From positions 1 through 64,000 of IMG/VR virus record IMGVR_UViG_3300031992_000077: a stretch of 64,000 nucleotides of DNA. The stretch is one strand, 5' to 3'. This DNA is from a virus. Taxonomy: Duplodnaviria; Caudoviricetes. The position numbers and the translations under genes were made by a program. Positions 1-64,000 of the stretch are shown here, piece after piece (the stretch's first letter is position 1; the number at the start of each line of letters is the position of its first letter). The notes beneath the pieces are model-generated. The model was not told the DNA's origin and ran no database searches. It saw nothing but the letters and a program-made list of their open reading frames with translations.

Positions 1-385
1 TAGTATTAAGTAAATCTTTTTCAATTGCACTTCGCTTTGCCGGCATTATCCAAGTATATGCATCTAATATACCTTTTTCAGGTTCTGGGGTGGGAGTCGG
101 AGTTGGAGTCGGGTCTACTTTAGGTTTTATTTCTCCACGAGCCGCCGCTTCAATAGCTTCCCAGCAAGCTTCGTAGATAGTACCTGTTACTTCTAGTGGT
201 CCTTCACAAATAGAGTCATAAGTATTCTAAAATTTCTCTGTAGCCTCTACGCTATCTTTTCGAAACTAGTTACTTCTAATACGTTTTATTTTATTAGAAT
301 ACATTCCTAATTCAAAGAGTTTTTTCTTTATATATAATACATCGGAGCCACTCATTCCTAATTTTATAGTTCTTTTAAATTCCAT
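1..385 (-). CDS. Putative endolysin/cell-wall hydrolase, N-terminal part (peptidoglycan-binding domain plus Pro/Thr linker); runs off the window; 2 in-frame TAG visible
   Basis: ATG at 385 with GGAGG RBS. Translation MEFKRTIKLGMSGSDVLYIKKKLFELG...EATEKF(TAG)N matches the PG_binding_1 pattern (LxxGxxGxDV...KFQ), followed by a PTPTPTPTPEP linker. Catalytic domain not visible. Confidence 0.65.
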
Positions 386-411
386 TTAATATTCCTCCGG
401 TATTTATTATC

Positions 412-431
412 CTATATTATAAGTAAGTTAT
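412..431 (-). promoter_or_regulatory. Candidate phage late promoter ATAACTTACTTA-N3-TATAG
   Basis: 17 of 20 nt identical to 15187-15206. Both copies lie about 30 nt upstream of the first gene of a minus-strand, TAG-containing late-type unit. Confidence 0.55.
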
Positions 432-451
432 TTAATTTAAAAATCTATAAT

Positions 452-480
452 TTGCAATCTAAAGAAAATTATGGTATAAT
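452..480 (+). promoter_or_regulatory. sigmaA/sigma70-type promoter with extended -10
   Basis: TTGCAA, 17-nt spacer, TGG-TATAAT, upstream of ORF 510. Confidence 0.8.
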
Positions 481-509
481 ATTTATAGAAATAAAGGAGA
501 TATAGTAAT

Positions 510-893
510 ATGGGAAATGAAAATAAATTAGCGAAATTTACAGAAATTCTCTACATTAATATGTATGGAGAAGGCTCGCGCGATAATAATATAATTAATA
601 TCGGAGAATTTAATCCAAATTATTTAGATGGTAAGATTTGTATTAGAATTGCAGATTCAGTCGCGGCGCTATTTAATTATAAGATTAAATTAGGGTGTAC
701 TTTCTTTCAATATATAAAATTCCTCGCGCACAATAAAAAATTGTTTAAGAATAATAGATATATCTGGGATAGGAAGAATAGTGGGCGTCCCGCGCATGAA
801 TGGCTTAGTGATATCTCTGATGCAAATAAAGAAAATTTTGAAATTTGGAATAATGTGTGGGAGTATTTAAATAATAATGAAAAATTGGATTGA
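510..893 (+). CDS. Hypothetical protein (127 aa)
   Basis: AAGGAG RBS, first gene after the promoter, overlaps the rnhA start. Confidence 0.7.
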   Translation: MGNENKLAKFTEILYINMYGEGSRDNNIINIGEFNPNYLDGKICIRIADSVAALFNYKIKLGCTFFQYIKFLAHNKKLFKNNRYIWDRKNSGRPAHEWLSDISDANKENFEIWNNVWEYLNNNEKLD

Positions 894-1341
894 TATTTAT
901 ACTGATGGCGCGACCAGCGGGAATGGGACAAAGAATGCCCGAGGGGGTTGGGCATATGTATTTTATTTAGATGGCGGCGAGCAGATAAAAGATTATGGTG
1001 GAGAGTTAAATACTACTAATAATCGTATGGAACTTACTGCGGTAATCAAGGCAATTCAAGCCGCGCGCGCTATCTGCGGAGAAAAAATAGATTTACATAT
1101 AATTAGTGATAGTGCATATATTATTAATTCATATGAGCAACGGTGGTATGAAAACTGGGAACGTAACGGGTGGATTAATAGCGCGCGCAAGCCAGTAGCA
1201 AATAGAGATTTATGGGAGATATTAATCCCTTATTTTCGAGACACACATAATTTATTTATTAAAATTAAGGGGCATTCTGGGCATGAGGAAAATGAGTTAG
1301 TAGACAAGCTTGCTAAGCGCGGTGCGATGGAGGCTAAATGA
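877..1341 (+). CDS. rnhA: Ribonuclease HI
   Basis: Motifs IYTDGA, TNNRMELTAVI, ISDSAY, KGHSGH, NELVDKLA; no TAG. Confidence 0.95.
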   Translation: MKNWIDIYTDGATSGNGTKNARGGWAYVFYLDGGEQIKDYGGELNTTNNRMELTAVIKAIQAARAICGEKIDLHIISDSAYIINSYEQRWYENWERNGWINSARKPVANRDLWEILIPYFRDTHNLFIKIKGHSGHEENELVDKLAKRGAMEAK

Positions 1342-1559
1342 GAATTATAAAACATGGAAGAATAGAAAGAGAGGAAATAACTAGAACTGTTACGTTTGAA
1401 TGTATGAATTGCGGCTGTATTTTTGAAGAAGATACAACGGATTTAAGACCAAAATATGCTTATACTTGTCCATGTCCTGACTGCGGATATGAGGTTTGGA
1501 GCGATAAATATAGAGATATTAAATATATAAAATATTATAAGGTAGGTGATGTAGAATGA
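1338..1559 (+). CDS. Small zinc-ribbon protein
   Basis: CMNC and CPDC pairs; ATGA overlaps with both neighbours. Confidence 0.7.
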   Translation: MRIIKHGRIEREEITRTVTFECMNCGCIFEEDTTDLRPKYAYTCPCPDCGYEVWSDKYRDIKYIKYYKVGDVE

Positions 1560-2080
1560 AGGTTTATGTCATTAATGGCCTTCCAAGAAGTGGAAAAACT
1601 ACTTTCGAGAACTTTTGTTTTGCACTCAATCCTATCTATGTACGTATGTTTTCTTCTATTTAGCCTGTAAAGGAGATAGCATAGAAATGTGGATGGAACG
1701 GTGCAAAAGAACCTAAAGATAGAAAATTTTTAGCAGATTTAAAATAGTTACTTATAGAATATAATAATTTTCCTTTTAATGAAGTCGCGCATTATATAGA
1801 ATTAGAAAAGCGATGGATGGATTAGCGAGATTATGACGGTGATAAATTAATTTTCTTTATAGATGTGCGCGAACCTTCTGAGATTTAGAAGTTAAGAGAT
1901 AAGTATAACGCATAGGCTATTCTCATACAGCGCGCGCTCTCTACGCAATAGGATAATAGCGCCGACTGCGAAGAAAATTTTAATCCAGATTTATATGACA
2001 TGGTAATTGCAAATAACGGAACGCTAGAACAACTCGAAGCTTAGGCGCGAGAATTTATGAAAGATAAAAGATATAAATAA
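1556..2080 (+). CDS. P-loop nucleotide kinase-like protein (dNMP kinase-like), 174 aa, 8 TAG=Gln
   Basis: Missing from the ORF track. Reads MKVYVINGLPRSGKT...WNGAKEPKDRKFLADLK...FIDVREP...IANNGTLEQL and is open to TAA 2078-2080 when TAG is read through. Confidence 0.75.
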
Positions 2081-2084
2081 AAAT

Positions 2085-2116: not shown

Positions 2117-2118
2117 AT

Positions 2119-3093: not shown

Positions 3094-3136
3094 TATTTTT
3101 ACTCCTTTTTACGCATAAATAGATAAATATTTTATA

Positions 3137-4861: not shown

Positions 4862-4863
4862 AA

Positions 4864-5794: not shown

Positions 5795-7705
5795 TTAACT
5801 TACACCTCCATTATATGTGGGTAAGCTAGCTGCCGCCCACGCTCCATTTACTACCATTAAAACTTTATTATTATCACTAGATGTAATCGACGGAAGTGCG
5901 TCTACTGCACCCCATTCCACATCATAATTAGTTGAACTAGTTTTTTTAAGCACTTGACCTGCGGTCCCACCAGTAGGAATTGAATGAATATCAGATGTTA
6001 AAGCTATAGTTCCGGTTGCATCAGGCAATGTATAGGTTCTAGAAGCAGTTATACCATCAACTCGTAATGTTCCTCTATATGAATTAGCCGCCAAAGATAG
6101 TGAATCATATCTAAAAGAACCGTATTTTGTTCTACTAGAATCGTAAATGGATAAAGTTTGTGAGGAATCATTATACTATATTTTATTTGAAGTATACGCG
6201 ATACTTGTAGACTACGTAGAACCCATCGTATTAGAAAAAAGCAGCCCTCTACCTGAGTTAATTCCACTTAAAGGAGTCTATGTAACTTTCGTATCTGTAT
6301 TCGTCTCTGAATAAATATCATAATCTGTTCCATTTACATTTATTGTAGCAGATTTTGTCCCACTTGTCAAATTTTGGGTTATTGAAATAGTAGGAATATC
6401 TGTAGTTAAAGCTATAGTTCCAGTCGCGTTTGGTAATGTATAAGTTCTATTCGCAGTTACGTTAGCAGTTTTTAACAACCCAGAATATAAAGTAGTTGAA
6501 TTTGCTAAAGCTATTGAATCAAACTTATAATAGCCCGATTTAGTTCCACTTGAATTGTAAAAATATAAAGTTGGTGAGGAATCATTATACTATATTTTAT
6601 TTGAAGTATATACAGTATCTGTAGTCTGTGTAGAACCAGTTAAAGCAGAAAAAAGTAATCCCCTAGTTGAATCTGTTCCATTTAATGGAATCTATGTAGC
6701 TTTTGTGTCTGTATTCTTCTCTGAATAAATATCATAATCCGTTCCATCTATATTAATTGTAGCAGATTTTGTTCCACTTGTTAAACTTCGAGTTACTGTA
6801 ACAAGTGACCCAGATGAAACTTCTACATATCCAGTACCGCTATACCTATAAGTCTTATCCGTACTTAAATCTACATAAATCTTACCAGCTTCACCTGTAA
6901 TTTCCGTAGTATGCGCGGCTTCTTTCCAAAACTTTGAATTATAATAGTAACCTTCAATAATATCATCTACATAAGAAGGTAAATATGTACTATCTATCTT
7001 ACTAGAAGCATTTAATGGCGCTACACCACTAGCCGCGCCAACCGCACTTGTTGCAACCGCGCCGACTTCACTGGCAGTATAAGTAGGTTTACTATCTGCT
7101 TTGGCCCAGCTTGGTACAGTAGGGTCTGTTTCTGTATAACCTGTAATATACCCCGCGTCATTTGTAAAGGCGCTAATATTTGTTGGTATTGTAGGAATAT
7201 CTGTAGTTTCCGCGATAGATTTTATTGTTAAAACATTATCAGACATATAGGCTATATATAATTTGCCATATTGAAGATTTGTATAATGTACCGAAGTCTA
7301 ATAGTTTAATAATCGATTAGTATTAATATCATAAAAATGAAAACTACCACTTCCAGGAATAGTAACAGTACTCCCACTCACGCCTCCCTGAAACATTAAT
7401 AAAAATGAACTAGAATAATCAGATGAACCATAAGTACTAAAACTTACATTGCTTACAAAAATATTTCTATCCGAACTACTACAATCTATATATCCTATTC
7501 CAAAATTATTATGTGTTGTAATATCACTTATTTTAGTAGGAATTCCTGTTACGCTTAAAACCCCTGTACTACTATCTATGCTTAAATTAGTTCCAACCTT
7601 TATTCCACCAAGAGTAGAAGAAGAAGCGATAGGAAGTTCACTAGTCGGAATTTCATATGTATTACCTCCTATCTATAAATATCTCATTTCACCAATTAAA
7701 GCCAT
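5795..7705 (-). CDS. Tail-fibre-like protein, 636 aa (code 15)
   Basis: Fibre-type motifs LPIASSSTLGGIKVG, ISAFTNDAGY, ETDPTVPSWAK and YLPSYVDDIIEG; three track fragments are in one frame; AAGGAG RBS. Confidence 0.8.
5980..6785 (-). repeat. Internal tandem duplication of an approx. 135-aa module
   Basis: Two copies of LTSGTKSATIN...DYDIYSE.NTDTK.TQ...YTSNKIQYNDSS...RTYTLP.ATGTIALT. Confidence 0.85.
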
Positions 7706-15363: not shown

Positions 15364-16491
15364 ATGAAAGGTTATGTTGATGGTTTTGACTGGTATAACG
15401 CAGAAGCCATGAAATACTGGAGTATCCCTTCGTCTTATAGCGCAGAAAAAGGAAAAACTGAAATTAAAAATGCTATCTTTAGCGGACGTTATTATGGGGC
15501 ACTTAAAGTAGACGGATATTATCAACGTCTTATTAAGGATGAAGACGGTAACTGTTTTATGGTTGCGCGCTCAAAAAATGTAAAAGGTGAACCAACTGAT
15601 AAATACGACTGGGTTCCGCAGCTTCATAAATTTATGGATAGTTTACCTAATGGAACCGTTTTACTTAGTGAATGTTATTTACGTGATAATGAAGGTTCAC
15701 AAAAAATAACTAGTCTACTGGGATGTCTTAAAGATAAATGTATAGAGCGGCAAAAGAAAGACCAGTGGCTTAGCTTTTATATTTTTGATATTTGTGCTTA
15801 TAACGGTAAAAATTTAATTAATACTCCTTTTAAAGAAAGAATAGATATTTTAATAGACCTCTCATTTAAATATAAAACCGCGCCACTTAATAGTGTATGT
15901 TCTTGTATTACTTGGGCTGAATATTTTTATGGAGAATCTTTATGGAACGAATTACAGAATTACCTAGCTAGCGGGCGAGAAGGTGTAGTAATTACACGAG
16001 AAGATTGTCCTATTTATTTTAAGCGCACCCCAGCGCACATAACAATTAAAGTCAAAAAAGAATTACGAGAAAGCCTAGACTGCTTCTTTACAGGGCGCGC
16101 GACGCCTCCGACCAGAATATACAGTGGTATTAGCCTGCCCAGTTGGGAATATTGGGAAGACCCGATTACAAAAGAAAAACTTAAGGGTAATTATTATAGA
16201 GAATATATGAACGGCGCGCCGATTGAGCCAGTTACTAAGTCTTATTTTAATGGAATGGCCGGCAGCCTAGAAATAGGAGTTCTTCGAGATGGAAAAGTAT
16301 ATCCTATTGGTTATCTTAGCGGTCTTAGTGACGAAATTAAAAGTAACTATAAAGAATATACTGGAAAGTGTTTAGAAGTTGGGGCAATGCAATTTACAGA
16401 AGGGAATAATGCATTAAGACACGCGAAAATGATTAGACTTCGTCCTGATCTTAATGTAGAAGATTGTACTTGGGAGAAACTTGGATTGTGA
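15364..16491 (+). CDS. ATP-dependent DNA ligase
   Basis: Motif I LKVDG, then FYIFD, EGVV, IKVKK, LRHAK...RPD; no TAG. Confidence 0.85.
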   Translation: MKGYVDGFDWYNAEAMKYWSIPSSYSAEKGKTEIKNAIFSGRYYGALKVDGYYQRLIKDEDGNCFMVARSKNVKGEPTDKYDWVPQLHKFMDSLPNGTVLLSECYLRDNEGSQKITSLLGCLKDKCIERQKKDQWLSFYIFDICAYNGKNLINTPFKERIDILIDLSFKYKTAPLNSVCSCITWAEYFYGESLWNELQNYLASGREGVVITREDCPIYFKRTPAHITIKVKKELRESLDCFFTGRATPPTRIYSGISLPSWEYWEDPITKEKLKGNYYREYMNGAPIEPVTKSYFNGMAGSLEIGVLRDGKVYPIGYLSGLSDEIKSNYKEYTGKCLEVGAMQFTEGNNALRHAKMIRLRPDLNVEDCTWEKLGL

Positions 16492-17487: not shown

Positions 17488-18561
17488 ATGGAATATATTA
17501 TTTATTGTATTCTTGGAGTTTTACTATTATTTTTTATTGTTCTCTTTTTTAGACAGCAAAAATAGAATAAATATTTATTAGAAGAAAATAAAAAAATAGA
17601 AGAAAATAAATTAGAAGAATTAAATTAGAAATATAATAAAAGAAAGGAGTTCCTCGAAGAAGATTATAATAAAAAATAGGAGTATCTTCAAGATTAGTAT
17701 AAAAAAAGAGAAAATCAATTATATCAAGATTTCTATCAAGCGCAATAGAATTATAATGAAATAACTGAAAATTTAAATTAGAATTTTAAAAGATATAAAG
17801 AGTCCTAGTATAAATTAATACAAGAAGATTTAGAAGAATATAGTAAAAATGAAAAATTTAAAAAATAGATTGAAATAGAAAAAAATACTTAGGAACTTTA
17901 TGAACAATATATAAAAAAACAAAAGCTACTTGAAGAAGAATTTCAATCTAAAAAAGCAGAAATAGAATTTGAAATAAAAGAAACTTATGATGATGCCGCA
18001 GAAGCTGCGTTAGAATACTGCGATATACTTGAAACTTTAGATGATTTTCGCAGACGGCGCGAGGTCGTAAATTCATAGGTATTGCGTGAAAAACAAATAC
18101 AAGAAGAAAAAGATTTTTATCGTATTTGTCTTAGTTAGAATGATATAGAAGACCTATAGATTATAAAAGATATAGAACATAAATTTAATAATAAAGAAGT
18201 TCTTCATAAAGCGGCTTTTGACTGTTATGTACGACGGCCGCTATCTGAGATGGAAAAACGAGTCTTAGGTAATAAAAAACCAAGTGGAATTTATATTATA
18301 ACCTATATTCCTACTGGAGAAATATATATAGGTCGTTCAACTGATATAGCAAATCGTTGGACAGAGCATGTAAAAAGTGCGTTTAATCTTGGTACTATCG
18401 CGCATAGCTCTCTCCATACAAAGATGGAAGAAAAAGGAATTTGGAATTTTACTTTTTAGATTTTAGAAGAAGTTTCAAAAGAAAAATTAAATGAAAGAGA
18501 GAAATATTGGATTAATTTATATGGCGCGACAACGCTAATGAATTAGAAATAGGGTGGATAA
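17488..18561 (+). CDS. Transmembrane helix + coiled coil + GIY-YIG endonuclease, 357 aa, 15 TAG
   Basis: YIIYCILGVLLLFFIVLFF helix, long E/K/Q-rich heptad region, then SGIYIITYIPTGEIYIGRSTDIANRWTEH...ERE...N. Confidence 0.8.
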
Positions 18562-19614
18562 ATGAATTTAAGTAAAAAATAGAAAGAAATAGTTGAATCA
18601 CCATATCCAAAAATAGTTGTTAATGCTGCAGCAGCTAGCGGAAAAACAGCTCTTATAGTAGAGCGAGTTAAATTTATGCTCTCACGCGGTTATATGCCAG
18701 AACGTATAGTTGTTATTACTTTTACTACAGCCGCGGCAGATGAGATGAGAAAGAGAATTGGTTATGTTGATGGCTTATTTATTGGAACTATTCATGCTTA
18801 TGCACTTTATCTTTTAAGTGTATATGGTTTAAATGAAAAGGCATTATAGTATATAAATGAAGAAAAATTTGATAGTCTTTTTGCTATGGTAAAAAGACAT
18901 AGAAAATGCATTAAACAAGTAGATTATCTTATGGTAGATGAAGCTCAAGACTGTTCAGAGAATGAATGGGAATTTTTTGCGTTAATAGACCCTGCTGGGT
19001 TTTTCTATTGCGGTGACACAAAACAATGCATTTATGAATGGCGAGATGCAAGACCAGCTGATTTTTTAGAAATAGCGTCTTATGAAGAAGTACATACATA
19101 TTCTCTTGATGAAAATTATCGGAATGGATACTCCATTCTTAACTTTGCAAAAGATATTATAACTCGTACTAAATCTCATATGTATGATGACTCAATACCA
19201 ATGCGTCATACCTCTGGAAAGGTCTAGTGGGTTGAATTTAACTTAGGTAATATAGCTAAATTAATTAAAAATAGTAAGGAACCTTATGGTAGCTGGTTCG
19301 TACTAGCGCGCACCAATGATTAGATAGAAAGTATATAGTATATCCTAGATTCATATGGAGTCCCAAATATTACCTTTAAACGTGGCGGGAAAAGCTTTGA
19401 TGAATTAGACGCACTCACTAAAGAAGATAAAGTAAAAGTCTTAACTATTCACACAGCGAAGGGACTTGAAGCGGATAATGTGGTCGTTATTGGGGCTAGA
19501 CTATGGGGTGATGAGGAAATAAGACTAGCTTACGTAGCGGCAACTCGTGCGAGAGAAAATTTATATTGGGTATATAACAAAAAGAAAAAAGCTAATATAG
19601 AAAGTTGGGAATAA
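18562..19614 (+). CDS. Compact UvrD/Rep-type SF1A helicase, 350 aa, 5 TAG
   Basis: LSKK(TAG)KEIV Q-motif, AAAASGKT, DEAQD, GDTKQCIYEWR, ENYR, VLARTND, TIHTAKGLE, EIRLAYVAATRA. Confidence 0.9.
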
Positions 19615-20139: not shown

Positions 20140-20886
20140 ATGAGTAAATTAAAAAATGAAATTGGAAATACATATGGGTATTTAACAGTTATAGGGCGCG
20201 CGCCGAATAATAAAGATGGTCGCGCAATGTGGAAATGTAGATGTAAATGTGGGAATGAAATTATAGTTTCTGGGAAACATTTACGTTCTGGTAATACTAA
20301 ATCTTGCGGCTGTTATTAGAAAGAACGTGCGATTGAATCAAATCTTATTAGGGGCGGAGATTTAACTGGAAAAAGATTTGGTAAATTAGTAGTTTTATGT
20401 GAAGATGGTTTTATAACTGGTTCAAATGGAAAAAGACGTAGATTATGGAAATGTCAATGTGATTGTGGGAATATTTGTTCTATTCAACACCAATATTTAA
20501 ATTATGGCGATACTACTTCTTGTGGTTGTATTAATTCAGTAGGAAATATGACAATTACAAGATTATTAAATAAATCTAATCATAAATATAAAGCAGAATA
20601 TTCTTTTAAAGATTTTATTTGTAATACCAAACCATATCAATTCGATTTTGCTCTTTTAGATAATGACGATAATTTGTTAGGACTAATAGAGTATCAAGGA
20701 GATATTCATTTTGTATATAAAGATATTGGTTGGAATACTAAAGAATCTTTTGAAGAAAGAGTAAAACGAGATAAAGAAAAATTTAATTATTGTAAAGAAC
20801 ATAATATAAAATTATTTTATATTACATATAAAGATGATATAGAAGAAAAATTATAGGAGATATTAAATGAGTTATACAGCAGATGA
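20140..20886 (+). CDS. Free-standing putative homing endonuclease: two Cys-rich DNA-binding repeats plus DUF559/Vsr-like nuclease, 248 aa, 2 TAG
   Basis: Two copies of G..FG.L.V...WKC.C.CGN......L..G.T.SCGC, then QFDFALL...LIEYQGDIH. Confidence 0.75.
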
Positions 20887-22717
20887 TATAAAATCATTAT
20901 CTTTTAGAGAAGGTGTAAGAACTCGTATTCAAATGTATCTTGGTAGCGCTGATAATGAAGGTGCCTATCAAGCTTTTAAAGAAATTATAAATAATAGTAC
21001 TGACGAAGCGCTTTGCGGTTATGGTAATCAAATTGATATTTCAGTAGATGAAGAAAACAATACTATTGAAGTTCAAGACTACGGGCGTGGTGTTCCTTTT
21101 TTAGTAAAAGAAGATGGTACTAATGTTCTAGTAGATGTATACACAAAAGCCCACACCGGCGGTAAATTTGATGACCACGCATATAAAAATGTTGGAGGTC
21201 TTAATGGTGTTGGTGGAAGTTGCGTATGTTTAAGTTCTCTTGACTTTATGGTAGAGAGCTGTCGTGATGGTAAGATGGCGCGCGCTATGTTCTTTAAAGG
21301 AGAGCTAGTTAGTTATAATGAGTTTGATACTAAACATGCTAATGGTACTCTTGTTAAATTTACACCAGACCCCGAAGTTTTTAAAGATGAAAAGATTCAA
21401 TATGATTATGAGAGAATTTGTAATGATATAAAGAATATTTGTTATCTTTATAGCGGAATTACATTTAATGTATATAATCTTAAAACAGGCAAGAAAAATA
21501 CATATTCCGCGCGCAATGGTATTAAAGACTTTATCAAAGATAATTTGAGTACACCGCTTCATAAAACAATTCAATATGCTACTGCCACTGATGGTGAAGA
21601 TAAAATTGAAATTGCTTTTCAATGGGGTGCAAAGCGCGAGACTTCTTATGTATTTGTTAACGGCTTGCTATGTCCTGAAGGAGGCAGTCCCATAACGGGA
21701 GCAAAAACAGCTATTACGCGTACATTCAACTCCCTATCAAAACAAGACTTTGATGGTGATGCAATTCGTGGAAATTTATTCTATGTAATTAATTGTTCTG
21801 TTGCACATCCGTCTTTTGCAAATCAAACAAAATCAAAAATCAATAATGCTAATCTGCGTACACTTGCTTCTAATGCTTTTAGCGATGCGCTGAAGTCAAT
21901 GAAGATTAAACTTCCACAAGAGTTTGATACAATCGTAGAATTATTGAAAAAAATTGCAAAGGCAGAAGCTGCCGCAGAGAAGGCGCGCCAGCAAGTTCTT
22001 AATGCTTCAAAAGAAATTGAAAAGAATCAAAAGAAAAAAGTTTTTGCTTCTGATAAATTGAAAGATGCGGAGTTTCTTGGGCAGAACTCGACCCTTCTTA
22101 TTGTTGAAGGTAATAGTGCTATGGGTGGTATGGCTCAGGCGCGTGATTACAAGAAGTATGGTATCCTGGCAATTAGGGGTAAGATTATTAATTGCTTGTC
22201 AAATCCCGAAGAAAAGATTTTTGAGAACGAAGAAATTAAACTTCTTTTGAGTGCGATGAATATCGTGCCGGGGAAATATAATAGTTCAAAACTTCGTTAC
22301 GGCCGCCTTGCAATCTGTACCGATGCAGATAGCGATGGATACCATATTGGACTTTTAATTATGGCTGCACTTACCTATCTTGCGCCGCAGTTTATTAAAG
22401 AAGGACGCTTGTGCTGGTTGCGCTCACCACTTTATATTGTCAATAATGGTAAGCAAGAAAGCTACTATTTCGATGATACAGAATTTAATGCTGTGCGCGG
22501 CAAGATTAAAGGTGAAGTAACGCGCGCAAAAGGTCTTGGTGAATTGCCGGCTGAAACCGCGCGAGCATCTATGTTTACTGAACAGTATCAACGTATGGAA
22601 GCTATGGAATATAGTGATGAAGCGTTAGGTTTATTGTATGATTTAATGGGCGAAGACGTAAAACTAAGAAAAGAATTTATTTTTAATAATATTGATTTTT
22701 CGGAGATAACGGAGTAA
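20867..22717 (+). CDS. gyrB: Type IIA topoisomerase (gyrase) subunit B
   Basis: EIINNSTDE, DYGRGVP, HTGGKF, GGLNGVG, VEGNSA, IRGKIIN, DADSDG, KGLGE; no TAG. Confidence 0.95.
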   Translation: MSYTADDIKSLSFREGVRTRIQMYLGSADNEGAYQAFKEIINNSTDEALCGYGNQIDISVDEENNTIEVQDYGRGVPFLVKEDGTNVLVDVYTKAHTGGKFDDHAYKNVGGLNGVGGSCVCLSSLDFMVESCRDGKMARAMFFKGELVSYNEFDTKHANGTLVKFTPDPEVFKDEKIQYDYERICNDIKNICYLYSGITFNVYNLKTGKKNTYSARNGIKDFIKDNLSTPLHKTIQYATATDGEDKIEIAFQWGAKRETSYVFVNGLLCPEGGSPITGAKTAITRTFNSLSKQDFDGDAIRGNLFYVINCSVAHPSFANQTKSKINNANLRTLASNAFSDALKSMKIKLPQEFDTIVELLKKIAKAEAAAEKARQQVLNASKEIEKNQKKKVFASDKLKDAEFLGQNSTLLIVEGNSAMGGMAQARDYKKYGILAIRGKIINCLSNPEEKIFENEEIKLLLSAMNIVPGKYNSSKLRYGRLAICTDADSDGYHIGLLIMAALTYLAPQFIKEGRLCWLRSPLYIVNNGKQESYYFDDTEFNAVRGKIKGEVTRAKGLGELPAETARASMFTEQYQRMEAMEYSDEALGLLYDLMGEDVKLRKEFIFNNIDFSEITE

Positions 22718-23648: not shown

Positions 23649-23818
23649 TTAAATATATCTGTGATAAATGTGGTAAAGAAATAGATAAATTTTTATTAAG
23701 AGATTGTATGATTATGTCAGTTACTGGACGTTATGCAAGATATGATAAAAGTGAAATCATATTATGCGAAAATTGTAAGGAAAATTTCAATAATTGGATA
23801 GGTGATACAGATGAGTGA
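23645..23818 (+). CDS. Small zinc-finger protein (57 aa)
   Basis: YICDKCGKEI...LCENCK. Confidence 0.65.
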   Translation: MIKYICDKCGKEIDKFLLRDCMIMSVTGRYARYDKSEIILCENCKENFNNWIGDTDE

Positions 23819-28689: not shown

Positions 28690-29226
28690 ATGCCAATTTG
28701 TAGAGTCTGTAAGCAAGAAATAGATAAAGAATTAGATGATTGGGTAATGCCGTCGCGCAATTGGTATTATCATAAAATATGTTATGAAAATTTTAAAAAA
28801 GAAAAAGAAGTTAAATCTGATGAAGATTATATTGATTTAATATTTGATTACATCGCGCGCGACCTAAAAGTTTCTTATGATTACCATAAAATAAAAGCAT
28901 AGATAAAAAATTTTGTAAAAAATGGAATGACGTGTAAAGGAATATTGTTTACTTTAAAATATTATTATGATAAGTACAGTAAAGAAAATTGGGATAAAGG
29001 ATATGGCGGAATTGGTATAGTACCATATTTTTATAAAGAAGCAACAGAATACTGGACAAATATCGAGCTTAGAAAACGCGGTAGTTGTGAACTTATAGTA
29101 CAACAAATTAAAAGTTTAAAAGAAATAGAAGAAAAAGAAATTAAATATAATCCTATTCAAAAGAAAAAGAAAAAAGAAGAAATAGATTTTTCTGAAATAT
29201 TAAAGGAGGACGAACTTGATAGTTGA
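28690..29226 (+). CDS. Zn-binding replication-associated protein upstream of the helicase, 178 aa, 1 TAG
   Basis: CRVC...HKIC; track fragments 28690 and 28927 join through TAG 28900. Confidence 0.65.
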
Positions 29227-39054: not shown

Positions 39055-40977
39055 ATGAATATTAATATTAGACTTGATAAAAATTTTACTACACAATTTA
39101 ATAAACTTCAAGAAAAATACGGAGAAGAATTCGCTAAACTTAATGGCTTAAGTGATGAATAGCTTTCCTATACAGACTTTATTTCTAATTTTATTGAATC
39201 TGAGACTGTAGCCGATGCATCTGTGGATAGTAATGCTAATGTAGGTCATAAAGATATTGTGACACTACTTAATGAAATGCCTAAACCGCATAGAAAACTT
39301 TTGGCTCTTCGTAAGATTTATTATGAAATGAATAAGACTTATGGTTTTAAAGTGGCCAATGATTGGCTTGAAAAAGAATGGTCGCGCGCGCTTTATATGC
39401 ATGATGCTGATACTTCTACTTTTAAACCATATTGTTATGCTTACGACCTTAAAGATTTGGCAGAACGTGGTTTATTCTTTCTTGAAGGTTTTAATGCAGA
39501 ACCTCCAAAGCATTTGGGTACTTTTATTGACTTTGTAAAAGAATTCATTAGCTATAATGCCAATAGAACATCTGGTGCTTGTGGTTTACCTAATCTTATT
39601 CCTTATATGTACTATTTTTGGAGCCGTGATGTAAAAAATAATTATTATACTCGCGACCCAGAAAGCTATGCAAGACAACATATTCAGCGCTTTATCTATG
39701 CAGTAAATCAGCCATGCGTGCGTGATGGTATGCAGAGCGCGTTTACTAATACCTCTATTTTTGACCATGAATATTTAATGGCGCTTTTCGGCGGTTCAAT
39801 TTTCCCTGACGGTTCATTTATGGTTGATGAAATTGAAGGAATTATGGATTTCCAAAAACTTTTTATGGAAGTTATGAGCGAGATTCGTGAACATAATATG
39901 TTTACTTTCCCAGTGAATACTATTTCACTTCTTAAAGTAAATGGTGAGTTTAAAGATGAAGAATTCGCACGTTGGGCCTGTAAACATAATATGAAATGGA
40001 GTGATAGCAATATTTTTGCAGACAGTAGTGTTAATTCTCTTTCTAATTGTTGTCGTTTAAAGAGCAATATTGAAGATTTGGGTTATTTTAATTCGATTGG
40101 CTCTACTGCGCTTCGTGTTGGTAGCGTAAAGGTATCTACTATTAATCTCGCGCGCCTTGCTTATGAAAATAAGACAGAAAAAGAATATCTTAAAGCTCTT
40201 CAAGAAATTACGGAACTTAATCTTAAAGCGCTCGATTGCGTCCGCCATATTATTCAGCGCAATATTGAGAAAGGACTTCTTCCTAATTACTGCGATGGCT
40301 TAATTGATATTAATACACAATATAATACTATTGGTGTACTTGGCATTTATGAAACTATGCGCGCGTTTGGATATACAAAACAAGACGAATTTGGCAACAC
40401 TTATTATACCGAAGATGCTTATAAATTTGGAGAAAAAATCTTTAAAGTCATTCATAATACTAAAGACCTTTTTAATATTGATAAAGATTATAGGATTAAT
40501 CTAGAGGCGGTTCCCGCGGAGCAGGCTGCGGTAAAAATGCAAAAAGCAGATGAAATGTTATATCCTGAAGTAGTAATAAAAGATTTGCCTTTATATGGTA
40601 ATCAATTCCTCCCACTTGGTATTAAAGCAACTCTTCAAGAACGAGTCCGTATTGCTAGCACTTTTGATAATTATTGTAATGGCGGTTCTATTTTACACGT
40701 AAATATTGAAGCACCATTTACTAATTTCAATCAAGCCTGGAAGATGTTAAATTATATCACAGATGCAGGCGTTACTTATTTTGCTTTCACAACAAAAATA
40801 CAAGCTTGTAAAAATAACCATGCTTTCTTTGGAAAAGTTTGCCCAGTATGCGGTGAACCAGTAGCTACAGAATATAGTCGTATAGTAGGATTTTATACTC
40901 CAGTTCGTACCTATTCAAAAGAGCGCAAAGCTGAATGGCAGATGCGTGAGTGGGAGAATGTAAATAATGAAAATTAA
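39055..40977 (+). CDS. nrdD: Anaerobic (class III) ribonucleoside-triphosphate reductase, 1 TAG at 39160
   Basis: TFPVNT, NCCRL, STINLARLA, EAVPAE, GGSI, CPVCG, SRIVGFY (glycyl radical site). Confidence 0.92.
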
Positions 40978-41473
40978 ATATTTAGTTGAAGAAGATTTTG
41001 TCAATTATAAAAAACCTTCACTATTTATTGGTTTTCCTGCTTGTACATTTAAATGCGGCGAAATGAATTGTTAGAATAGTTCATTGGCACATGCCGAAGA
41101 TATTGAGATTTCTAAAGAGGACATTTGTGAAAGATATATTAAAAATGAGATTACTGAAGCTTTTGTATTTGGTGGGCTAGAACCTTTTGATAGTTTTATG
41201 GATTTAATAAGTCTTATAGATTGTATTAGGAATAAATATAATATAGAAGATGATATTGTAATTTATACTGGATATACAAAAGAAGAATTAAAAAAAGGTC
41301 AGTTCGGAAAAGATAATGAAATATCAAGAATTAATTATAAATATTTAACAGATACATATAAAAATATTATAATTAAATTTGGTCGCTATTATCCAAATCA
41401 AAGCGCGCATTTTGACAAAGTTCTTGGTGTAAATCTTATAAGTGATAATCAATATGCGGAGAAAGTATCATAA
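40967..41473 (+). CDS. nrdG: Anaerobic RNR activase (radical SAM), 1 TAG
   Basis: [10 protein letters not shown](TAG)N, GGLEPF, VIYTGY, SDNQ. Confidence 0.88.
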
Positions 41474-42705
41474 TGGAAAATATTAGAGAATTAGATAATT
41501 TTATTAATTCAACTCTTGAATTTGAACATGGATATCTTGCGAAGATATTAGAATTAGAAGAAGAGCGCCAAAATAGAAACATTGAGTTAATTGCAAGTGA
41601 AAATTATACTTCAGATGCCGTTCGTGCGGCAATGGCTTCTTGCCTTACTAATAAATACGCAGAAGGATATAGCGGCAATAGATTTTATGGCGGTTGTGAA
41701 TATATTGATAAAATAGAAGATTGCTGTAAATAGACTTGGTAGAAAGTATTTAATACAAACTATAGTGTAAATGTATAGCCACATAGCGGAACACAAGCCA
41801 ATCTCGCGGTTTACAATGCATTACTAAATCCAGGGGATACAATATTGTCTCTAAATTTAAACAGCGGCGGGCATCTGTCTCATGGCTCTTTGGCCAATTT
41901 AAGCGGAAAAATTTATGATGTATATTATTATAATTTAGATAAAAATGGCTATATTGATACTGTAAATATGGTAGAATGCCTTAAAAAATATCATCCAAAA
42001 TTGGTTATTGCTGGCGCATCAGCATACCCGAGACAAATTTATTTTTCTAATATTAAAAAAATATTAGAAATTTTTGCTGATAATGAATCAATAGAATAGC
42101 CATATTTTATGGTTGATATGGCGCATATCGCTGGTTTAGTCGCAACTGGCTTTCACCCTTCTCCCTTTGGGTACGCAGATGTAATTACAACCACAACGCA
42201 TAAAACCTTGCGCGGACCACGTGGAGGATTAATTTTTTGTAAACCAGAATTAGAAAAGAAAATTAATAGCGCAGTATTCCCAGGTATGCAAGGTGGACCG
42301 CTAGAACATGTTATTCTTGCTAAAGCAGTCTGCGCGGAAGAGTGTTTATAGCCAAATTATAAGGAATATATAAATTAGGTTATATTAAACGCGGCGGCTA
42401 TGGCAAACGAATTTAAAAATAATGGATATGATTTAGTTAGTAATGGCACAGATACGCATTTATTTTTAATTGATTTTTCTAAAACACACCCGAATCTTAC
42501 AGGGCGCGCCGTGTAGGAAGAATTAGATAAATATAATATTACATTAAATAAAAATTGTGTACCTAATGAAAAGCGAAGTCCTTATTTAACTAGTGGTATT
42601 CGTATTGGAACACCGGCTATGACGACACGCGGCTGGAAAGAAGAAGACTTTATTAAATGCGCCAATTATATAGATAACATAATAAAAAATTTGACTAATA
42701 AATAA
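41473..42705 (+). CDS. glyA: Serine hydroxymethyltransferase, 410 aa, 7 TAG
   Basis: LIASEN, NKYAEGY, YGG, NV(TAG)[45 protein letters not shown]. Confidence 0.95.
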
Positions 42706-42719: not shown

Positions 42720-42741
42720 ATAAATAGTGAGGAGGAATACT

Positions 42742-43575
42742 ATGAAAGAATTTAAAATTGGAGTCGTCCCCGCTAAATTTGATTTTCGAGATTATAAAAT
42801 AAAATATAAAGGTATAGCAACCGCAGCAAACTTTCCAAAATAGTTTGAACTATCTATGCCAAAAGTAAAGTATTAGGACCAAGTAGGCAGTTGCGTAGCT
42901 TTCTCCTTATCCTTACTTTTTGAATATTTTAATAAACGAGAAACAAAAACAGATGTCACCATGAGTACATCTTATATTTATGGAAACCGTAGAAATAGTA
43001 CTTGGAAAAAGCCTGGTATGCGAGTTAGGGATGCTTTAAAAAACGGGTGTGAATATGGAGACGTTAGTAAAGACCTAATGCCTAAAAATATTGAAGTCCC
43101 GGAAGCTATTACTTATTTTGAAAAAGAAGGTCTAAAATTAAAAGAAATAGGCCAAATAAATCGTATTAAGAAATTTTTCAAAATTACCTCTGCCAACGCG
43201 ATGAAAGAGTGTTTAATGAATTACGGCCCTATTCTTGTTATAATAAAATGGTATAGTAATAACGTAGTAGATGGACAAGCTATATTAAAATCTGGCAATA
43301 ATAAAAAATACTATGATGGATAGCATTGTATGGTATGCTACGGTTGGAATGAAAAAGGTTGGAAAATTTAGAACTCTTGGGGTATCGGCTGGGGAAAAAT
43401 GGGTAAAGCTATTTTACCTTTTGACACTAATTTTGTAGAAGTTTGGGGAGTAATTGATTAGGAAAATTTAAATAATAGTAATTTAGAAATTATTACTCCA
43501 TGTAAAAACAATACTTCTGCATTAATAGCGAAAGGAATGAATAATATTGTAAATTTAATACTAGGAAGAAGATAA
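42742..43575 (+). CDS. Papain-like (C1A) cysteine peptidase, 277 aa, 5 TAG
   Basis: Y(TAG)DQVGSCVAFS catalytic Cys region, G(TAG)HCMVCYGW His region, I(TAG)NSWGIGWG Asn region. Confidence 0.85.
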
Positions 43576-44270: not shown

Positions 44271-44639
44271 ATGACAATTAATTACAAAGATAAATTTTAT
44301 ATTTATCATCCAGACGGGAAATTTACAGAAGAACAACTAAAAAAGATACTCGATGCAGCGTATGAAATGGGAAAAAAAGAAGGATATAATGATGGATATG
44401 AGCAAGGAAAAAAGAATCATTTTACTATAACTTACCCATCTTATCCATGGAGTACCCCATGCTATACTAATCCTAGTATTACATGTACAGACCCTACTAA
44501 AATTCCTTCTTCTATCACAACTGCCACTTCAATCATTAAAACTAATAAAGATTATTCAATAACTACGAAAAATGATGTCCCATTTACGTTAACTAATAAT
44601 ACTTGTAGGGAGTTTAAATATAATGGAACAGAAGAATAA
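44271..44639 (+). CDS. Hypothetical protein
   Basis: 122-aa ORF, AAGGAG RBS, AYEMGKKEGYNDGYEQG segment. Confidence 0.65.
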   Translation: MTINYKDKFYIYHPDGKFTEEQLKKILDAAYEMGKKEGYNDGYEQGKKNHFTITYPSYPWSTPCYTNPSITCTDPTKIPSSITTATSIIKTNKDYSITTKNDVPFTLTNNTCREFKYNGTEE

Positions 44640-45555
44640 TACTATTGAAGAAACCAAAGAAGTAAATCCAATAATCGATAGTTTCGAAGCAATTTCTAAA
44701 ATTATGGTAGGGGAAGAAGGAACAGAAGATATAACTACTATGTTCGGCGCACTTCTTTCTATGCCAGATGAAGAATTTAAAGAAGTGTCGTCTATTCTTC
44801 TCGATGAAATCATTCGTTCTTTAAATACTCCCGCAGATAGAATTGCTCTTGTTGCGGCAATGACTTCTAATGGCTATACTGGTGATGATTTAACCGATAC
44901 ATTTCAAGAGCTTTGTAAAGAAATTGATACACAACTCACAGAACTTTCACAAATTAAACGTGATTGGCTAAAACAGTTAATGGGTGCGGTTACTAATGCA
45001 ATTAATGAAACAGAAGGAATTTCTAAGAAATATGTAAGAGTTGCGTATGAAAAATGCCATGAAGACGCGAAAACCCCTGCATATGCACACGAAACTGACT
45101 CTGGAATGGATGTGTACGCTCTTGAAGAGATTACTCTCGCGCCCGGTGAACAGAAAACTATTCCTATTGGTATAAAAGTCGCATTGCCCGCTGGATACGA
45201 GCTATAGGTGCGTCCAAAAAGTGGCCTTAGTGCGGGAACTAAGTTGCGCGTAGCTAACGCTCCAGGAACAGTTGATGCTGGTTATAGAGATGAAATTAAA
45301 GTTATAATAGAAAACGTAGAACCCCCTATTAAAGATATAACTTACGAACCAGTAATGAATACAGAAAATGGACAAATAGACCATTTGCAGATAACTTCTA
45401 TTCTTTATGGAAGTTCTTATACTATCGGTAAAGGTCAAAAGTTCGCACAGTTAGTATTATCCGAAGTTCCTAAAGCAGTATTATACGAAGTAGAGAAAGT
45501 AGGTGAAATTGGCGAAGACCGCGGAGGCGGATTCGGCAGCACCGGGAAGTTCTAA
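44623..45555 (+). CDS. dut: Trimeric dUTPase with approx. 140-aa acidic N-terminal extension, 1 TAG
   Basis: GMDVYA, GYEL(TAG)VRPKSGL, GTVDAGYRDE, KFAQLV, RGGGFGSTG. Confidence 0.92.
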
Positions 45556-45556
45556 T

Positions 45557-46282
45557 ATGGCTTCCATAAATCTTACTACTATCTAGGAGTAGCTTCCAGA
45601 AGGTTGGAAGGTAATATCTACACAATATAAAAACCTAGATACTGAAATGGAATTTGAGTGTGCAGCCGGCCATAAAGTTTTTTCTACTTGGAAGAAGATG
45701 CGAACACGTGCCGAATGCCCTATATGTAAAGAGAAAGCGCCGCTCGTAGATACTACTATAATTCCTAAAAAGAAAGGAATTTATCGTACCATTGGAATAG
45801 ACCAGGCAACTCATATAAGCGGTTATTCAGTATATGATGGGAAAGAGCTCATTAAATTTGGAACTTTTACAGTAAATGAAACCAATGAAATAGAGCGCGA
45901 TAATATAATAAAAATGTGGTTATGCTCTATTATAAATAACTGGCAACCAGATGTAATCGGTCTCGAAGGAATTCAACTTCAGCAAAACGCCGCTCGTGGT
46001 ATTGGGGTCACTACCTTTGAAACTTTAGCGCGATTACAAGGTATACTTATGGAAGCTTGTTATGAACAAAAAACATAGTTTGTGATATGCCCAACGAATA
46101 CATGGCGCGCGCATTGTAAAGTTAAAGGTTAGACCCGTGAAGCTAAAAAGAATTCAATGAGATAGTTAGCGCGAGAATGGCATAATATTAATGTAAGCGA
46201 AGATGAAGCAGATGCCATCGGAATTGGAAAGTACGTTGCAGAAACATATGCTCTTACACATCAAGTCCAAAATTGGGAATAA
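45557..46282 (+). CDS. Zinc-ribbon-fused RuvC-like nuclease/resolvase, 241 aa, 5 TAG
   Basis: CAAGH...CPIC, then IGIDQAT..SGY, VIGLEG, LARLQG, EDEADAIGIG. Confidence 0.75.
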
Positions 46283-60800: not shown

Positions 60801-62996
60801 ACAATTATTATCTTTAACAATTATTTTTGTAACTATTTGCTCACTATCTAGAGTTCGATTATTATCTTTTAAGTTAATACCATATTTAAATCCTGCGTAA
60901 TTATCCTATAAGATTTCTTTATAGAATATGACTTTCTTAATTTGACGTATACGTTTTGTAGATTCATAATATTTTTTATTCTTTTCAACTTTTCCAGTAG
61001 CCTCTATGTATTTTTTCTAAGTCCAATCATATAAATAATAACCAGAAGCGGAAGCCCCAATAGTTAATTCTACTGGATTATAATAAGTATATTCTTCCGT
61101 ACTAATTCGTCCATTTAATTCATGCGTGACCTCGAATTTAACCCAACATTCAAAGGTTTCGCTTAATTGCTATAGAAGATTAAACCGATTAGTTTCTTTT
61201 GCTGTAATACTACGTATCTTCTCAAACTCTTTATCTCCTTCTCTATAAAGCGCAACATACTTATTTGGGTCAGAATCAGAAAAAACGTAATCTTCTGCAT
61301 ATATCTTCCCAAGGTTATCTGCTGGCGCGTAAAAATGATACCGTGTTTCTATGCGTACTTCTGGTATGTCTCCAGGCTCTAAAACACTACCATCTTTTTC
61401 AATATAACGATAAAACTATACGTCTTTAATATAATAATCCTAATTACTAGAAGTTTTTAATAAAAAGAAAATCCCAGTATTTGTCTTTAACTAATTCCAA
61501 GTAGCAGAATTAAGACAAACCATATCAACATATATATATCCACCAGACGCAGATTTAATAGTAGTATTATCCTCAGAATTAAAATAAATAACGTCTTCTG
61601 CATCATCCTAGTCTATCTTTAAATATTTTTTAATAATGCACCTAAAAGGTAAATCTGACAGCGTGTTAAAATTGTTGCCCGAAACTCTTCCAACGCAAAT
61701 TTTTAACCTATATTTGTCACCTTTATCAAATTTATTTATCCGAGAATAATTCTGTATTATTCCTTCATTAACCAATCTACTAGTAATAGTATTGCCAAAA
61801 TTAACAACCAGATAGCCTGCCCGCTCTAGACTAGTATTAGTAACCTATACACTTGGGAATACTTTCGCCTAAATAAATTTATTTGTATTTAAATCATTAT
61901 TATCCTGAATACTCCAATAAGATGTACCGGAAAAATTAGTAGAATTATAAATATAATTCTGTATAGAAGTAGAATCTAAATATTCTGTAGTAGTATAGCC
62001 ATAATACTCTTTATTATCACCTACTTCCGTACTTTTATATTTTAAGACCGTTTGCTCTAATACTGGGTCATAAGCACTTAGCTATTTTTTTACATAACGT
62101 TGCCCGCGATACTGTGAAATACTCACTTCTGAATTTATAAAAGTTGGCCGTTCATTAGCCCACTATACATTCTAAATATAAAGATCGTATGTACGAGTGT
62201 TATTACAATTAATTGTAATTCCATCATCTAATAAGTCTGGAATTAAAGTGCCAGTATCATTCTATACGTAAATAAATTGAAAATAATTTTGTTCCTATAT
62301 TGCAAAAGGAGTATAATAAATATAAATTCTTTTTCCACTTTCTATTACTTTATTAGTTGAAGTCCCACGAATCTTTGCTGTGATATTCTAATTTAAAACA
62401 GCAGAATATAATGCTTCCTCATTTGTCTATTCAATTATTTCCTAATCTTCTCGCGCGAGCTGCCAATCAGAGCCCTCTAATACTATACTGCCTAATTCCT
62501 ATACAGTACCCATATTATTTTCTAGTTCTGTATCTAATTCAATATTAAAGCCTGTTTTTCCTAACTCATTCGCCGCAAGACCAGTACAAGTATAAGAATA
62601 TTTATATTCTCTTCCTTTTTCGTCATCTTTTTTTACGATAAAATCATACCATTTATCTTCATATTTGAGTTTAACTTTTCTTTCATCAATTACTAAATTA
62701 ATAAGAGGATTACGTATTATTTCACCGTTTTCCTCATACTAATAATACATATCAAAAGTAAGAGTTTCAGTACCATTAATATTCTTTTTAAATATCGGAT
62801 TTATGGCTCGCGCTGGAGATGTCATGACATCAGAACCGATTGTCGCGAGTCGTTCTTCATCATAATATTGATAATCTACACTAGATAAATCATCTAAATT
62901 GGAAGTAGGCGAATTCTTTCCAGATTTCGGAGTACCTACATACATTAATAAGTCTTTCCAAATACTTATTTCATATGGTTTTTTAATTATATTCAT
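57825..62996 (-). CDS. Tal-like tail spike/central fibre protein, about 1723 aa (code 15)
   Basis: Follows Dit; KKNINGTETLTF, NRFNLL(TAG)QLSETFECW, coiled coil, AISGYGINT...AGIIDA. Frame checked over about 1.9 kb and consistent with the fragment at 58869 and the stop at 57825. Confidence 0.75.
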
Positions 62997-63012
62997 AACT
63001 ATTTACCTCGTA

Positions 63013-63969
63013 TTAGAAGTAAAGATAATCATATTCTAAAACAGGCTCTGCACCAGAATAATTAATAGGAATAAAATACCAATCTTTTCCTTGCTCATTT
63101 ACCGGTATTTTAAACCAATGTCCGGCACTAATATATTCATTATATAAATTTGTGGTGCGCGCGCCCTATGCATTTAATCCTTCAATTAAATTTGTGCGAG
63201 AATTAAAGAGTAAAAACTAGTCATTCCCTTTCTACGTAATGGTTCCATTTAATTGTAAAGTATGACTAGCTAAATCATTGGTACCATCAGAAATTTTTAT
63301 TCCGCTAATAGCCGCATTAATTGGTATCTTAAATTTAAAATCCGCCTCTACATCTCCTGGATTATAAAGTTTAAACCCAGTAGCAGAAACATAAGTATCA
63401 TAATTCCCTTTTTCATTTAATAAATTAGCACTATATTTCCACTCATCTTTATTATCATATTTATACCAAGGGGTGTTAAAACCCTCTATTACATACTAAT
63501 TTAAATATTTACATTCATTTGGTGTATGAGCGAATGGGTCATAACAAGTAAATGTAAAAGTCCCTTCACCCTTATAAATGCGCGGTCTTATATTTTTATC
63601 CTCTTCCTAATTATTAAATGGAATATAATTATATTGCGGCGTACCTGTCACTTTTGCGTAATAAACCTTATAAGGCTCTTCATCAAAAACTAAAGGATGA
63701 GACTATCTATCTCCAAATACTTTTCGCGCGAGTCTTATCTAATCTTCACTTACATTATCGAAAGCCACATTTAATATAAATTGTCTTTGAGTATAATAGC
63801 TTCCAAAAAAATAAGTGCCATCACTACCAGAAACCTAAACGGTTTTATCTTGGATTACAGGAAGTAACGCATCTGCATATCTATCAGATGAAGTTACATG
63901 TACAATCCCCAACTCGGTAGAATGGACACCATTATATGAAAAAGATATAAAATCACCTTTAATAGGCAT
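63013..63969 (-). CDS. Distal tail protein (Dit), 318 aa (code 15)
   Basis: FSYNGVHSTELGI...DKTV(TAG)VSGSDG...FDEEPYKVYYAKV...YDYLYF; AAAGGAGG RBS. Confidence 0.8.
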
Positions 63970-64000
63970 ATGTCATTCCTCCTTTAAACGCTTATATCTA

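Follow-up and report, generated by a model that had tools for sequence, protein, structure and literature searches.

We analyzed a 64,000-nucleotide window, bases 1–64000 of the 77,328-bp virus record IMGVR_UViG_3300031992_000077 (hereafter G0), in which the codon TAG stands for glutamine. G0 is an uncultured tailed phage with siphovirus-type tail genes, known from metagenomes alone and probably from the rumen. The contig has 33% guanine-cytosine content and is about 60% complete by CheckV; its complete relatives measure 95–145 kb. Judged from predicted genes, its repertoire matches a large tailed phage of the Bacillota type. Replication genes comprise an ATP-dependent ligase, GyrB, GyrA, an AAA_24 (Sak4-like) protein, DnaB, RecJ, RNase H and a 1,323-residue DNA polymerase III alpha (PolIII-alpha) replicase. 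NrdD, NrdG, GlyA and dUTPase supply deoxynucleotides, and the minus strand carries tail genes for the distal tail protein Dit, a minor tail protein and, past the window edge, a presumed tape measure. The nearest GenBank phage polymerases to the replicase are of the SPbeta YorL type, at ~37% identity (tblastn). At the DNA level the window has no close GenBank phage match, only patches shorter than 320 nt. We rejected a crAss-like identity because of the Dit-bearing siphovirus-type tail genes and the SPbeta-YorL-like replicase. Distantly related cultured phages infect Bacillus, Enterococcus, Enterocloster and Staphylococcus.

UAG is a sense codon in G0 genes, and termination uses UAA and UGA alone. 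We called a greedy, non-overlapping set of open reading frames (ORFs) over the whole 77-kb contig. The standard code (code 11) covered 53.6% of the sequence with 90 ORFs averaging 154 amino acids, whereas TAG as sense covered 95.6% with 69 ORFs averaging 357 amino acids. Reading TGA as sense covered 55.6%, no gain of the kind that code 4 (TGA = Trp) would give, and TAG-sense did not raise the coding density of standard-code relatives. Of the 60 genes called within the window, 41 hold at least one in-frame TAG (268 in total) and carry 75% of the encoded residues; over the whole contig, 387 in-frame TAGs fall in 49 of 69 genes. Those 69 genes stop at TAA (55) or TGA (13) and at no other codon. 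No Pfam-recognized gene is interrupted by TAA or TGA, and domain matches run full length across TAGs. Off-frame, TAA and TGA together make up ~5% and 11% of codons inside genes, so a 1,723-codon frame (the minor tail protein) with TAG as its only interruption lies far beyond chance.

The placement of TAG and the signals around genes confirmed this picture. TAGs are distributed uniformly along genes (Kolmogorov–Smirnov p = 0.31), and 10 genes have one within 12 codons of their end where ~13 were expected, hence no C-terminal excess. Shine-Dalgarno-like motifs precede 49 of 69 code-15 starts (71%) but only 3 of 44 starts of internal fragments called under code 11, against a background of 7.7%. 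Same-strand genes under code 15 have a median spacing of 8 nt, with 20 overlaps. A preliminary description, made from the sequence alone, had claimed that interruptions are always TAG and never TAA or TGA, and that readthrough restores full-length genes with ribosome-binding sites and tight overlaps; the full-length domain matches, start motifs and spacing bear out both points. It had also warned that standard annotation ruins more than half of the genes, and had proposed comparing coding density under tables 15 and 11. The warning was correct given the 41 TAG-containing genes and their share of residues, and the comparison gave a 42-point rise. Separately, one gene, on the minus strand at 10112–11983, offers a single convincing case in which TAG could double as a stop; the other gene with TAG directly before its stop codon is an ORF at 45573–45809, probably a spurious product of the greedy caller.

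Codon exchange between close relatives identifies the amino acid. We compared G0 with two collinear relatives taken whole, both recoded: G001 (84 kb, 85% identical) and G002 (121 kb, 95% complete), counting codon partners at well-aligned orthologous codons. G0 TAGs face TAG 137, CAA 42, CAG 21, AAA 8, GAA 8 and ACT 6 times in G001, and TAG 50, CAA 39, CAG 9, GAA 7 and AAA 6 times in G002. Glutamine codons thus account for 63 of 110 changed partners in G001 and 48 of 95 in G002. Codons a single step from TAG are nearly absent among G001 partners (TAC, TTG, TGG, TCG and AAG 0; TAT 1; GAG 1). The TAG partner spectrum instead mirrors that of CAA, including its lysine, glutamate and threonine partners. 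Codon usage within G0 fits as well: TAG, CAA and CAG together form 3.0–4.3% of codons in each gene block, while the TAG share of them ranges from 5% to 57%.

Glutamine also faces G0 TAGs in relatives that use the standard code. Across 25 related loci with almost no in-frame TAG, translated strictly with table 11, the residues opposite G0 TAGs were Q in 163 of 308 cases, followed by K (29), T (18), L (16), E (6), A (6) and W (3), with no Y. Q was the majority residue at 12 of the 22 TAG sites represented by at least three standard-code loci. Individual columns give the same answer. In these standard-code relatives Q occupies AAA_24 residues 110 and 307 in 22 of 22, NrdG residue 36 in 17 of 18, dUTPase residue 195 in 17 of 20, RecJ residue 488 in 18 of 23 and NrdD residue 36 in 13 of 19.

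Solved structures provide a further comparison. In the UvrD-type helicase, the TAG at 18580–18582 (residue 7) is the Q-motif glutamine and aligns to Q of UvrD (3lfu) and Rep (1uaa). In GlyA, the TAG at 41776–41778 encodes the Q of NVQPHSG, which is Q in 4j5u and 7v3d, and residue 302 is Q in solved serine hydroxymethyltransferase structures. The papain-like peptidase TAG at 42874–42876 falls at the oxyanion glutamine, six residues N-terminal of the catalytic Cys, where cathepsin K has Q19 and 3ois likewise has Q. Three of the four best PDB dUTPases carry Q at residue 195. The NrdG "CQN" motif had no PDB match; its gene adjoins NrdD. RecJ residue 488 aligns to Thr in 8y30, the sole full-length solved RecJ matched. 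All 59 homologues of GlyA at 66% identity likewise have Q in the NVQPHSG column. We dropped this group as bacterial evidence, given its unknown origin and the use of TAG=Q for some gene calls in the database, and relied on solved structures and table-11-translated relatives.

TAG therefore is glutamine in G0, as read from these aligned sequences. The preliminary description had placed TAG at family-conserved glutamines at six coordinates, and all six are in-frame TAGs in the families named (UvrD-helicase, SHMT, dUTPase, DHH plus RecJ_OB, Fer4_12 NrdG-like and Peptidase_C1). Conservation held for UvrD, GlyA, dUTPase and papain, and for NrdG among the standard-code relatives. For RecJ it held within the phage clade and failed against the Thr of 8y30, which limits "family-conserved" there to that clade. 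Alignment of homologues at TAG columns, the check it had proposed, returned glutamine at the conserved ones.

TAG is unevenly spread among gene blocks. In the replisome block (20.1–37.6 kb) TAG makes up 8 of 171 glutamine-type codons (5%), and the polymerase, DnaB, GyrB and ligase genes have none. The share is 35% in the nucleotide-metabolism block and 55–57% in the two tail/late blocks. Structural and late genes are recoded and early genes remain compatible with the standard code, with early and late assigned from gene function. The same pattern has been published for recoded phages (10.1101/2021.08.26.457843).

Relatives encode a candidate reader of UAG. G0, G001 and G002 are collinear, with G0 base 1 corresponding to ~7.3 kb in G001 and ~11.3 kb in G002. 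G002 encodes a class I transfer RNA (tRNA) with a CUA anticodon at 7136–7212, as the first gene of its tRNA array and directly upstream of tRNA-Leu(UAA); by collinearity this gene sits ~4 kb past the left end of G0. Directly upstream of it (L102:7213-7300, minus strand) lie an extended -10 promoter-like site, TGATATAAT, and an 8-bp hairpin, which suggests that the G002 array may be transcribed under separate control. Seven of 25 related records whose tRNA arrays were read carry tRNA(CUA): G002, the closest near-complete one, and six others. An acceptor signature consisting of a non-G:C 1-72 pair plus G73 occurs in 5 of 7 CUA tRNAs, 16 of 17 phage tRNA-Gln and 23 of 326 other tRNAs. Overall similarity was tried as a guide to tRNA identity and was uninformative (nearest Leu(UAA) 0.61, Gln(UUG) 0.51). 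Release-factor and Gln/Glu-tRNA synthetase (Gln/GluRS) genes were not found in G0 or four relatives. The preliminary description had proposed looking for tRNA-CUA, GlnRS or RF2 in the rest of the genome; the tRNA exists in relatives and not in the G0 contig, and neither of the others turned up in G0 or the four relatives. One European Nucleotide Archive contig (24.5 kb, assembly ERZ27257202), with an RNase H identical to that of G0, reaches 6.6 kb farther leftward and has a 1-kb stretch free of genes 4.8–5.8 kb past the start of G0. An exact-pattern scan of IMG/VR for a left extension of G0 returned G001 alone, and a scan of JGI metagenomes returned nothing.

The host clue comes from the rumen. 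Across 7.2 kb retrieved around its GlyA, a 47-kb contig, CACZGA010000005.1 (L131), matches G0 at 81.5% identity; this contig was binned in the metagenome-assembled genome (MAG) "uncultured Erysipelotrichaceae RUG12586". This MAG encodes prfA and prfB, for release factors 1 and 2 (RF1 and RF2), and so would treat UAG as a stop. The contig may be a host clue or a binning artefact, binning being weak evidence for a host.

We propose that a suppressor tRNA reads UAG in G0 and switches the code for late genes. The phage would infect a standard-code Bacillota host. The leading gene of the phage tRNA array, just past the left end of G0, would encode a tRNA(CUA) whose acceptor features resemble those of tRNA-Gln. 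The host machinery would charge this tRNA with glutamine, and during infection it would out-compete RF1. Replisome genes, being near TAG-free, could be produced in an unmodified host. Tail and late genes, with more than half of their glutamines at TAG, would yield complete proteins only after the suppressor comes into action, as in the published "code switch" model. We hold this joint reading of glutamine, suppressor decoding and late-gene switching with high confidence; the comparisons above demonstrate its glutamine part, and we infer the mechanism.

Several observations weigh against the mechanism. The G0 contig contains no tRNA genes, so that at ~60% completeness its UAG reader is unobserved. 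G001, the nearest relative, has no tRNA(CUA) beside tRNA-Leu(UAA), the site used in G002, in an array cut by the contig end. G004 and G005, complete and recoded-looking, have none among their ARAGORN and Rfam tRNA matches, which means that a phage-borne suppressor is not universal in the group. The acceptor signature is also present in 7 of 9 tRNA-Trp, the main kind among its carriers outside tRNA-Gln, so tRNA features alone cannot fix glutamine. The link to a host comes from metagenomic binning alone. The missing tRNAs of G0, G001, G004 and G005 leave room for a reader supplied in trans, whether by a suppressor of the host, by a recoded phage infecting the same cell or through an unconventional tRNA-like gene. 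The literature does note recoded phages that carry no suppressor gene (PMC10607447). We nevertheless regard this as unlikely, at perhaps the odds of a serious outsider, because G0 and G001 are fragments whose tRNA regions are incomplete, G002 and six other relatives do encode tRNA(CUA), RF1 is encoded by the candidate host MAG, and recoding of G004 and G005 was judged from the 24 kb around the polymerase alone. In its narrower form, the G0 and G001 lineage would lack a conventional amber suppressor and would use a trans reader or an unconventional tRNA-like gene. The empty G001 site, a G001 tRNA-like gene with a 28-nt arm and the missing CUA tRNAs of G004 and G005 leave this conceivable, and we think it improbable. 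If true, it would make the group suited to the study of how a genome stays recoded without its decoder.

Alternatives to glutamine itself fare worse. TAG could be sense and encode Glu, Lys, Tyr, Ala or pyrrolysine: AAA, GAA and ACT partners exist in G001, K is the second residue in the standard-code relatives, and ARAGORN labels CUA tRNAs "Pyl" by default. Yet glutamine codons dominate the changed partners in both relatives, Q far outnumbers E, Y, W and A in the standard-code loci, family-invariant columns are Q, and the K, E and T partners fit the spectrum of CAA itself. Pyrrolysine decoding is further marked by a pylT/pylS system and few specific UAG sites, whereas hundreds of TAG sites here exchange with CAA and CAG. 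A Gln/Glu-type synthetase was not found in G0, and no search aimed at pylS was made. We give another amino acid very little chance. The remaining option, that TAGs are real stops in a phage undergoing decay through many nonsense mutations or reflect an assembly or sequencing artefact, could invoke the fragmentation of most genes under table 11. It is already refuted by coding density, codon partners and start motifs. Only one of three stop codons interrupts genes, 137 TAG positions are kept as TAG in the 85%-identical G001, sequence 3' of TAGs is conserved with Pfam matches end to end, and internal fragments have no ribosome-binding sites. About 30 related loci from independent metagenomes share the elevated in-frame TAG density.

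The tRNA regions of the relatives hold further unusual genes. The G001 tRNA-like gene (L097:1422-1510, minus strand) scores 35 bits against the Rfam tRNA model and has an anticodon-arm region of 28 nt rather than 13. Neither a standard anticodon loop nor CUA is readable in this gene, and ARAGORN needs an "intron" to fit it; we therefore rejected it as a hidden suppressor. Suppressor tRNAs of 88 and 94 nt in G014 (L121:8241-8328) and G017 (L123:5349-5442) have an extra hairpin at the variable-arm position, with loops that resemble the tRNA-Gln anticodon loop (CUCUGAA; UUUGAC). Long insertions occur in tRNA genes of G005 (L112:854-998) and G002 (L102:1190-1348); one such gene is an apparent tRNA-Trp with a 71-nt anticodon-loop insert and another is a 159-nt tRNA match. 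Inserts in the tRNA genes of relatives are too short for group I introns. ROOL RNA genes (334 and 268 bits) lie within or beside the arrays of G006 (L113:4160-4772) and G003 (L109:13152-13759), the former ~270 nt upstream of tRNA(CUA). Theta or hepatitis-delta-virus-like ribozymes beside the suppressor tRNAs were considered and rejected; Rfam searches of seven tRNA regions returned only tRNA and ROOL above threshold.

Recoding seems to have changed repeatedly within this group. We classed related loci from IMG/VR, each 12 kb or longer, by in-frame TAG density, as elevated (≥2.2 per 1,000 amino acids) or non-elevated (<1.0). About 30 loci were elevated and 25 were not. In a polymerase tree of 41 sequences, recoded and standard-code states are interleaved, and well-supported branches force at least 6–7 changes; the tree was midpoint-rooted and built by a quick method, and this count could be too high if phages have swapped their polymerase genes. 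L002, L003 and L004 join G0 in a subclade whose members are all recoded. G004 (L032, L110) and G005 (L058, L111, L112) have direct terminal repeats and raised in-frame TAG density around the polymerase. The polymerase gene itself varies in length: in L042, L046, L050, L053-L055 and L061 the PolIII-alpha match spans 4.8–5.2 kb, against 4.0 kb otherwise, and these genes seem to be interrupted by ~1-kb inserts (intein, intron or homing endonuclease). In the records of Enterocloster phages, the polymerase gene contains an annotated "DNA endonuclease".

G0 joins an established class of recoded phages. Genomics and proteomics have established TAG-to-Gln recoding in phages (10.1101/2021.08.26.457843; PMC9523058; PMC10607447; PMC11210395), with the proteomic proof from Peters et al. 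(PMC9523058), and the preliminary description was right that code 15 is known in gut phages (10.1101/2021.08.26.457843; PMC9523058; PMC10607447). Borges et al. describe crAss-like, Lak, Jade, Sapphire, Garnet, Amethyst and Topaz clades from gut and rumen (10.1101/2021.08.26.457843). Like published code-15 phages, G0 has in-frame TAG only, glutamine at conserved columns and a presumed standard-code host. Its structural genes are heavily recoded and recoding of replication genes is variable, its relatives carry tRNA(CUA), and recoded and standard-code members are interleaved in one clade. What probably sets its lineage apart from those clades is the combination of gyrase and a PolIII-alpha replicase with tail genes of siphovirus type, in a group whose complete members measure 95–145 kb; release-factor and aminoacyl-tRNA-synthetase genes were not found in G0 and the four relatives searched.

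The closest published parallels are one phage group and one laboratory system. phAss-1 and its proposed "Phassvirus" group are siphovirus-type phages of the human gut, 136 kb in size, that recode TAG to Gln and encode tRNA-SUP-CTA (PMC10607447). By that paper's description they share with the G0 group a long tape measure, DNA polymerase III alpha, an NrdG-type activase and dUTPase, TAG in virion and some DNA-processing genes, suppressor tRNAs without a dedicated synthetase, and recoding patterns that vary among close relatives (PMC10607447). Compared with this published description, and having no close GenBank phage match, G0 appears to be an analogue rather than a member. supE-type laboratory amber suppression likewise sets a glutamine tRNA body with a CUA anticodon in competition with RF1 at UAG, and the CUA tRNAs of G0's relatives share the weak 1-72 pair and G73 with the phages' own tRNA-Gln. 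Unlike in supE-type suppression, 387 sites in 49 of 69 G0 genes depend on UAG decoding, which must therefore be efficient, and the suppressors of two relatives have an extra arm.

The remaining gene calls are collected in Table 1. The sole TAG of the GyrA-like gene (codon 23) possibly lies upstream of the true start. The RuvC-like ORF overlaps dUTPase as called, and its true start is probably after 45555; the dUTPase itself has an N-terminal extension of ~140 residues without a Pfam match. We take the 2,636-residue ORF that follows Dit to be the tape measure because of its length and its place in the gene order.

Table 1. Predicted genes of the G0 window, with the evidence for each call and its in-frame TAG content
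Feature	Position	Strand	Evidence and TAG content
RNase H	877..1341	+	PF00075, E 1e-33; TAG-free
dNMP kinase-like	1556..2080	+	phrog_139; 8 TAG
Late or structural protein, 574 aa	3137..4861	-	phrog_18805; 13 TAG
Tail-fibre- or peptidase-like protein	5795..7705	-	PHROG matches; 7 TAG
Gene ending ...TAG TAA	10112..11983	-	TAG immediately 5' of stop codon
ATP-dependent DNA ligase	15364..16491	+	PF01068; TAG-free
GIY-YIG domain protein	17488..18561	+	PF01541; 15 TAG
Short UvrD-type helicase	18562..19614	+	PF00580/PF13361; 5 TAG
GyrB-like topoisomerase subunit	20867..22717	+	PF00204, PF01751; TAG-free
GyrA-like subunit	23733..26165	+	PF00521, E 1e-105; 1 TAG
AAA_24 (Sak4-like) protein	27609..28577	+	PF13479; 3 TAG
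DnaB-type helicase	29216..30778	+	PF03796, PF00772; TAG-free
RecJ-like exonuclease	31817..33559	+	PF01368 (DHH), PF17768 (RecJ_OB); 1 TAG at 33278-33280, residue 488
DNA polymerase III alpha-type replicase, 1,323 aa	33622..37593	+	tblastn; 0 TAG, 42 CAA/CAG
357-aa protein, function unassigned	37590..38663	+	13 TAG, just 2 CAA/CAG
NrdD, anaerobic ribonucleotide reductase	39055..40977	+	PF13597, E 5e-92; 1 TAG, residue 36
NrdG-like radical-SAM activase	40967..41473	+	PF13353 (Fer4_12); 1 TAG at 41072-41074, residue 36
GlyA, serine hydroxymethyltransferase	41473..42705	+	PF00464, E 2e-143; 7 TAG
Papain-family cysteine peptidase	42727..43575	+	PF00112; 5 TAG
dUTPase	44623..45555	+	PF00692; 1 TAG at 45205-45207, residue 195
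RuvC-like ORF	45407..46282	+	PF02075, weak, E 6e-4; 8 TAG; overlaps dUTPase as called
ORF from greedy caller, probably spurious	45573..45809	-	TAG right before stop codon
Tail-region protein, 1,093 aa	51433..54714	-	18 TAG
Tail or host-specificity protein, 1,032 aa	54727..57825	-	phrog_9413; 20 TAG
Minor tail protein, 1,723 aa	57825..62996	-	phrog_6211; 44 TAG, no TAA/TGA
Distal tail protein Dit	63013..63969	-	phrog_33; 8 TAG
2,636-aa ORF outside the window, next after Dit	contig 64071-71981		90 TAG

Any functional reading of G0 requires table 15. Annotated with table 11, two thirds of its genes would be fragmented, among them those for tail proteins, GlyA, the UvrD-type helicase and the papain-like peptidase. 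Public resources already reflect this: a public protein collection holds this GlyA at full length and 100% identity, and a 95%-identical GlyA on a related contig is flagged as translatable only "with_TAG=Q". Such recoding is amply documented in the literature, and TAG=Q is already applied to this phage in public gene calls. G0 leaves existing knowledge of the mechanism of recoding unchanged and adds one lineage to the TAG-to-Gln phages, of Bacillota type, rumen-associated and equipped with a PolIII-alpha replicase. With its interleaved recoded and standard-code genomes, the polymerase-defined group around G0 forms a natural series for following the gain and loss of recoding.

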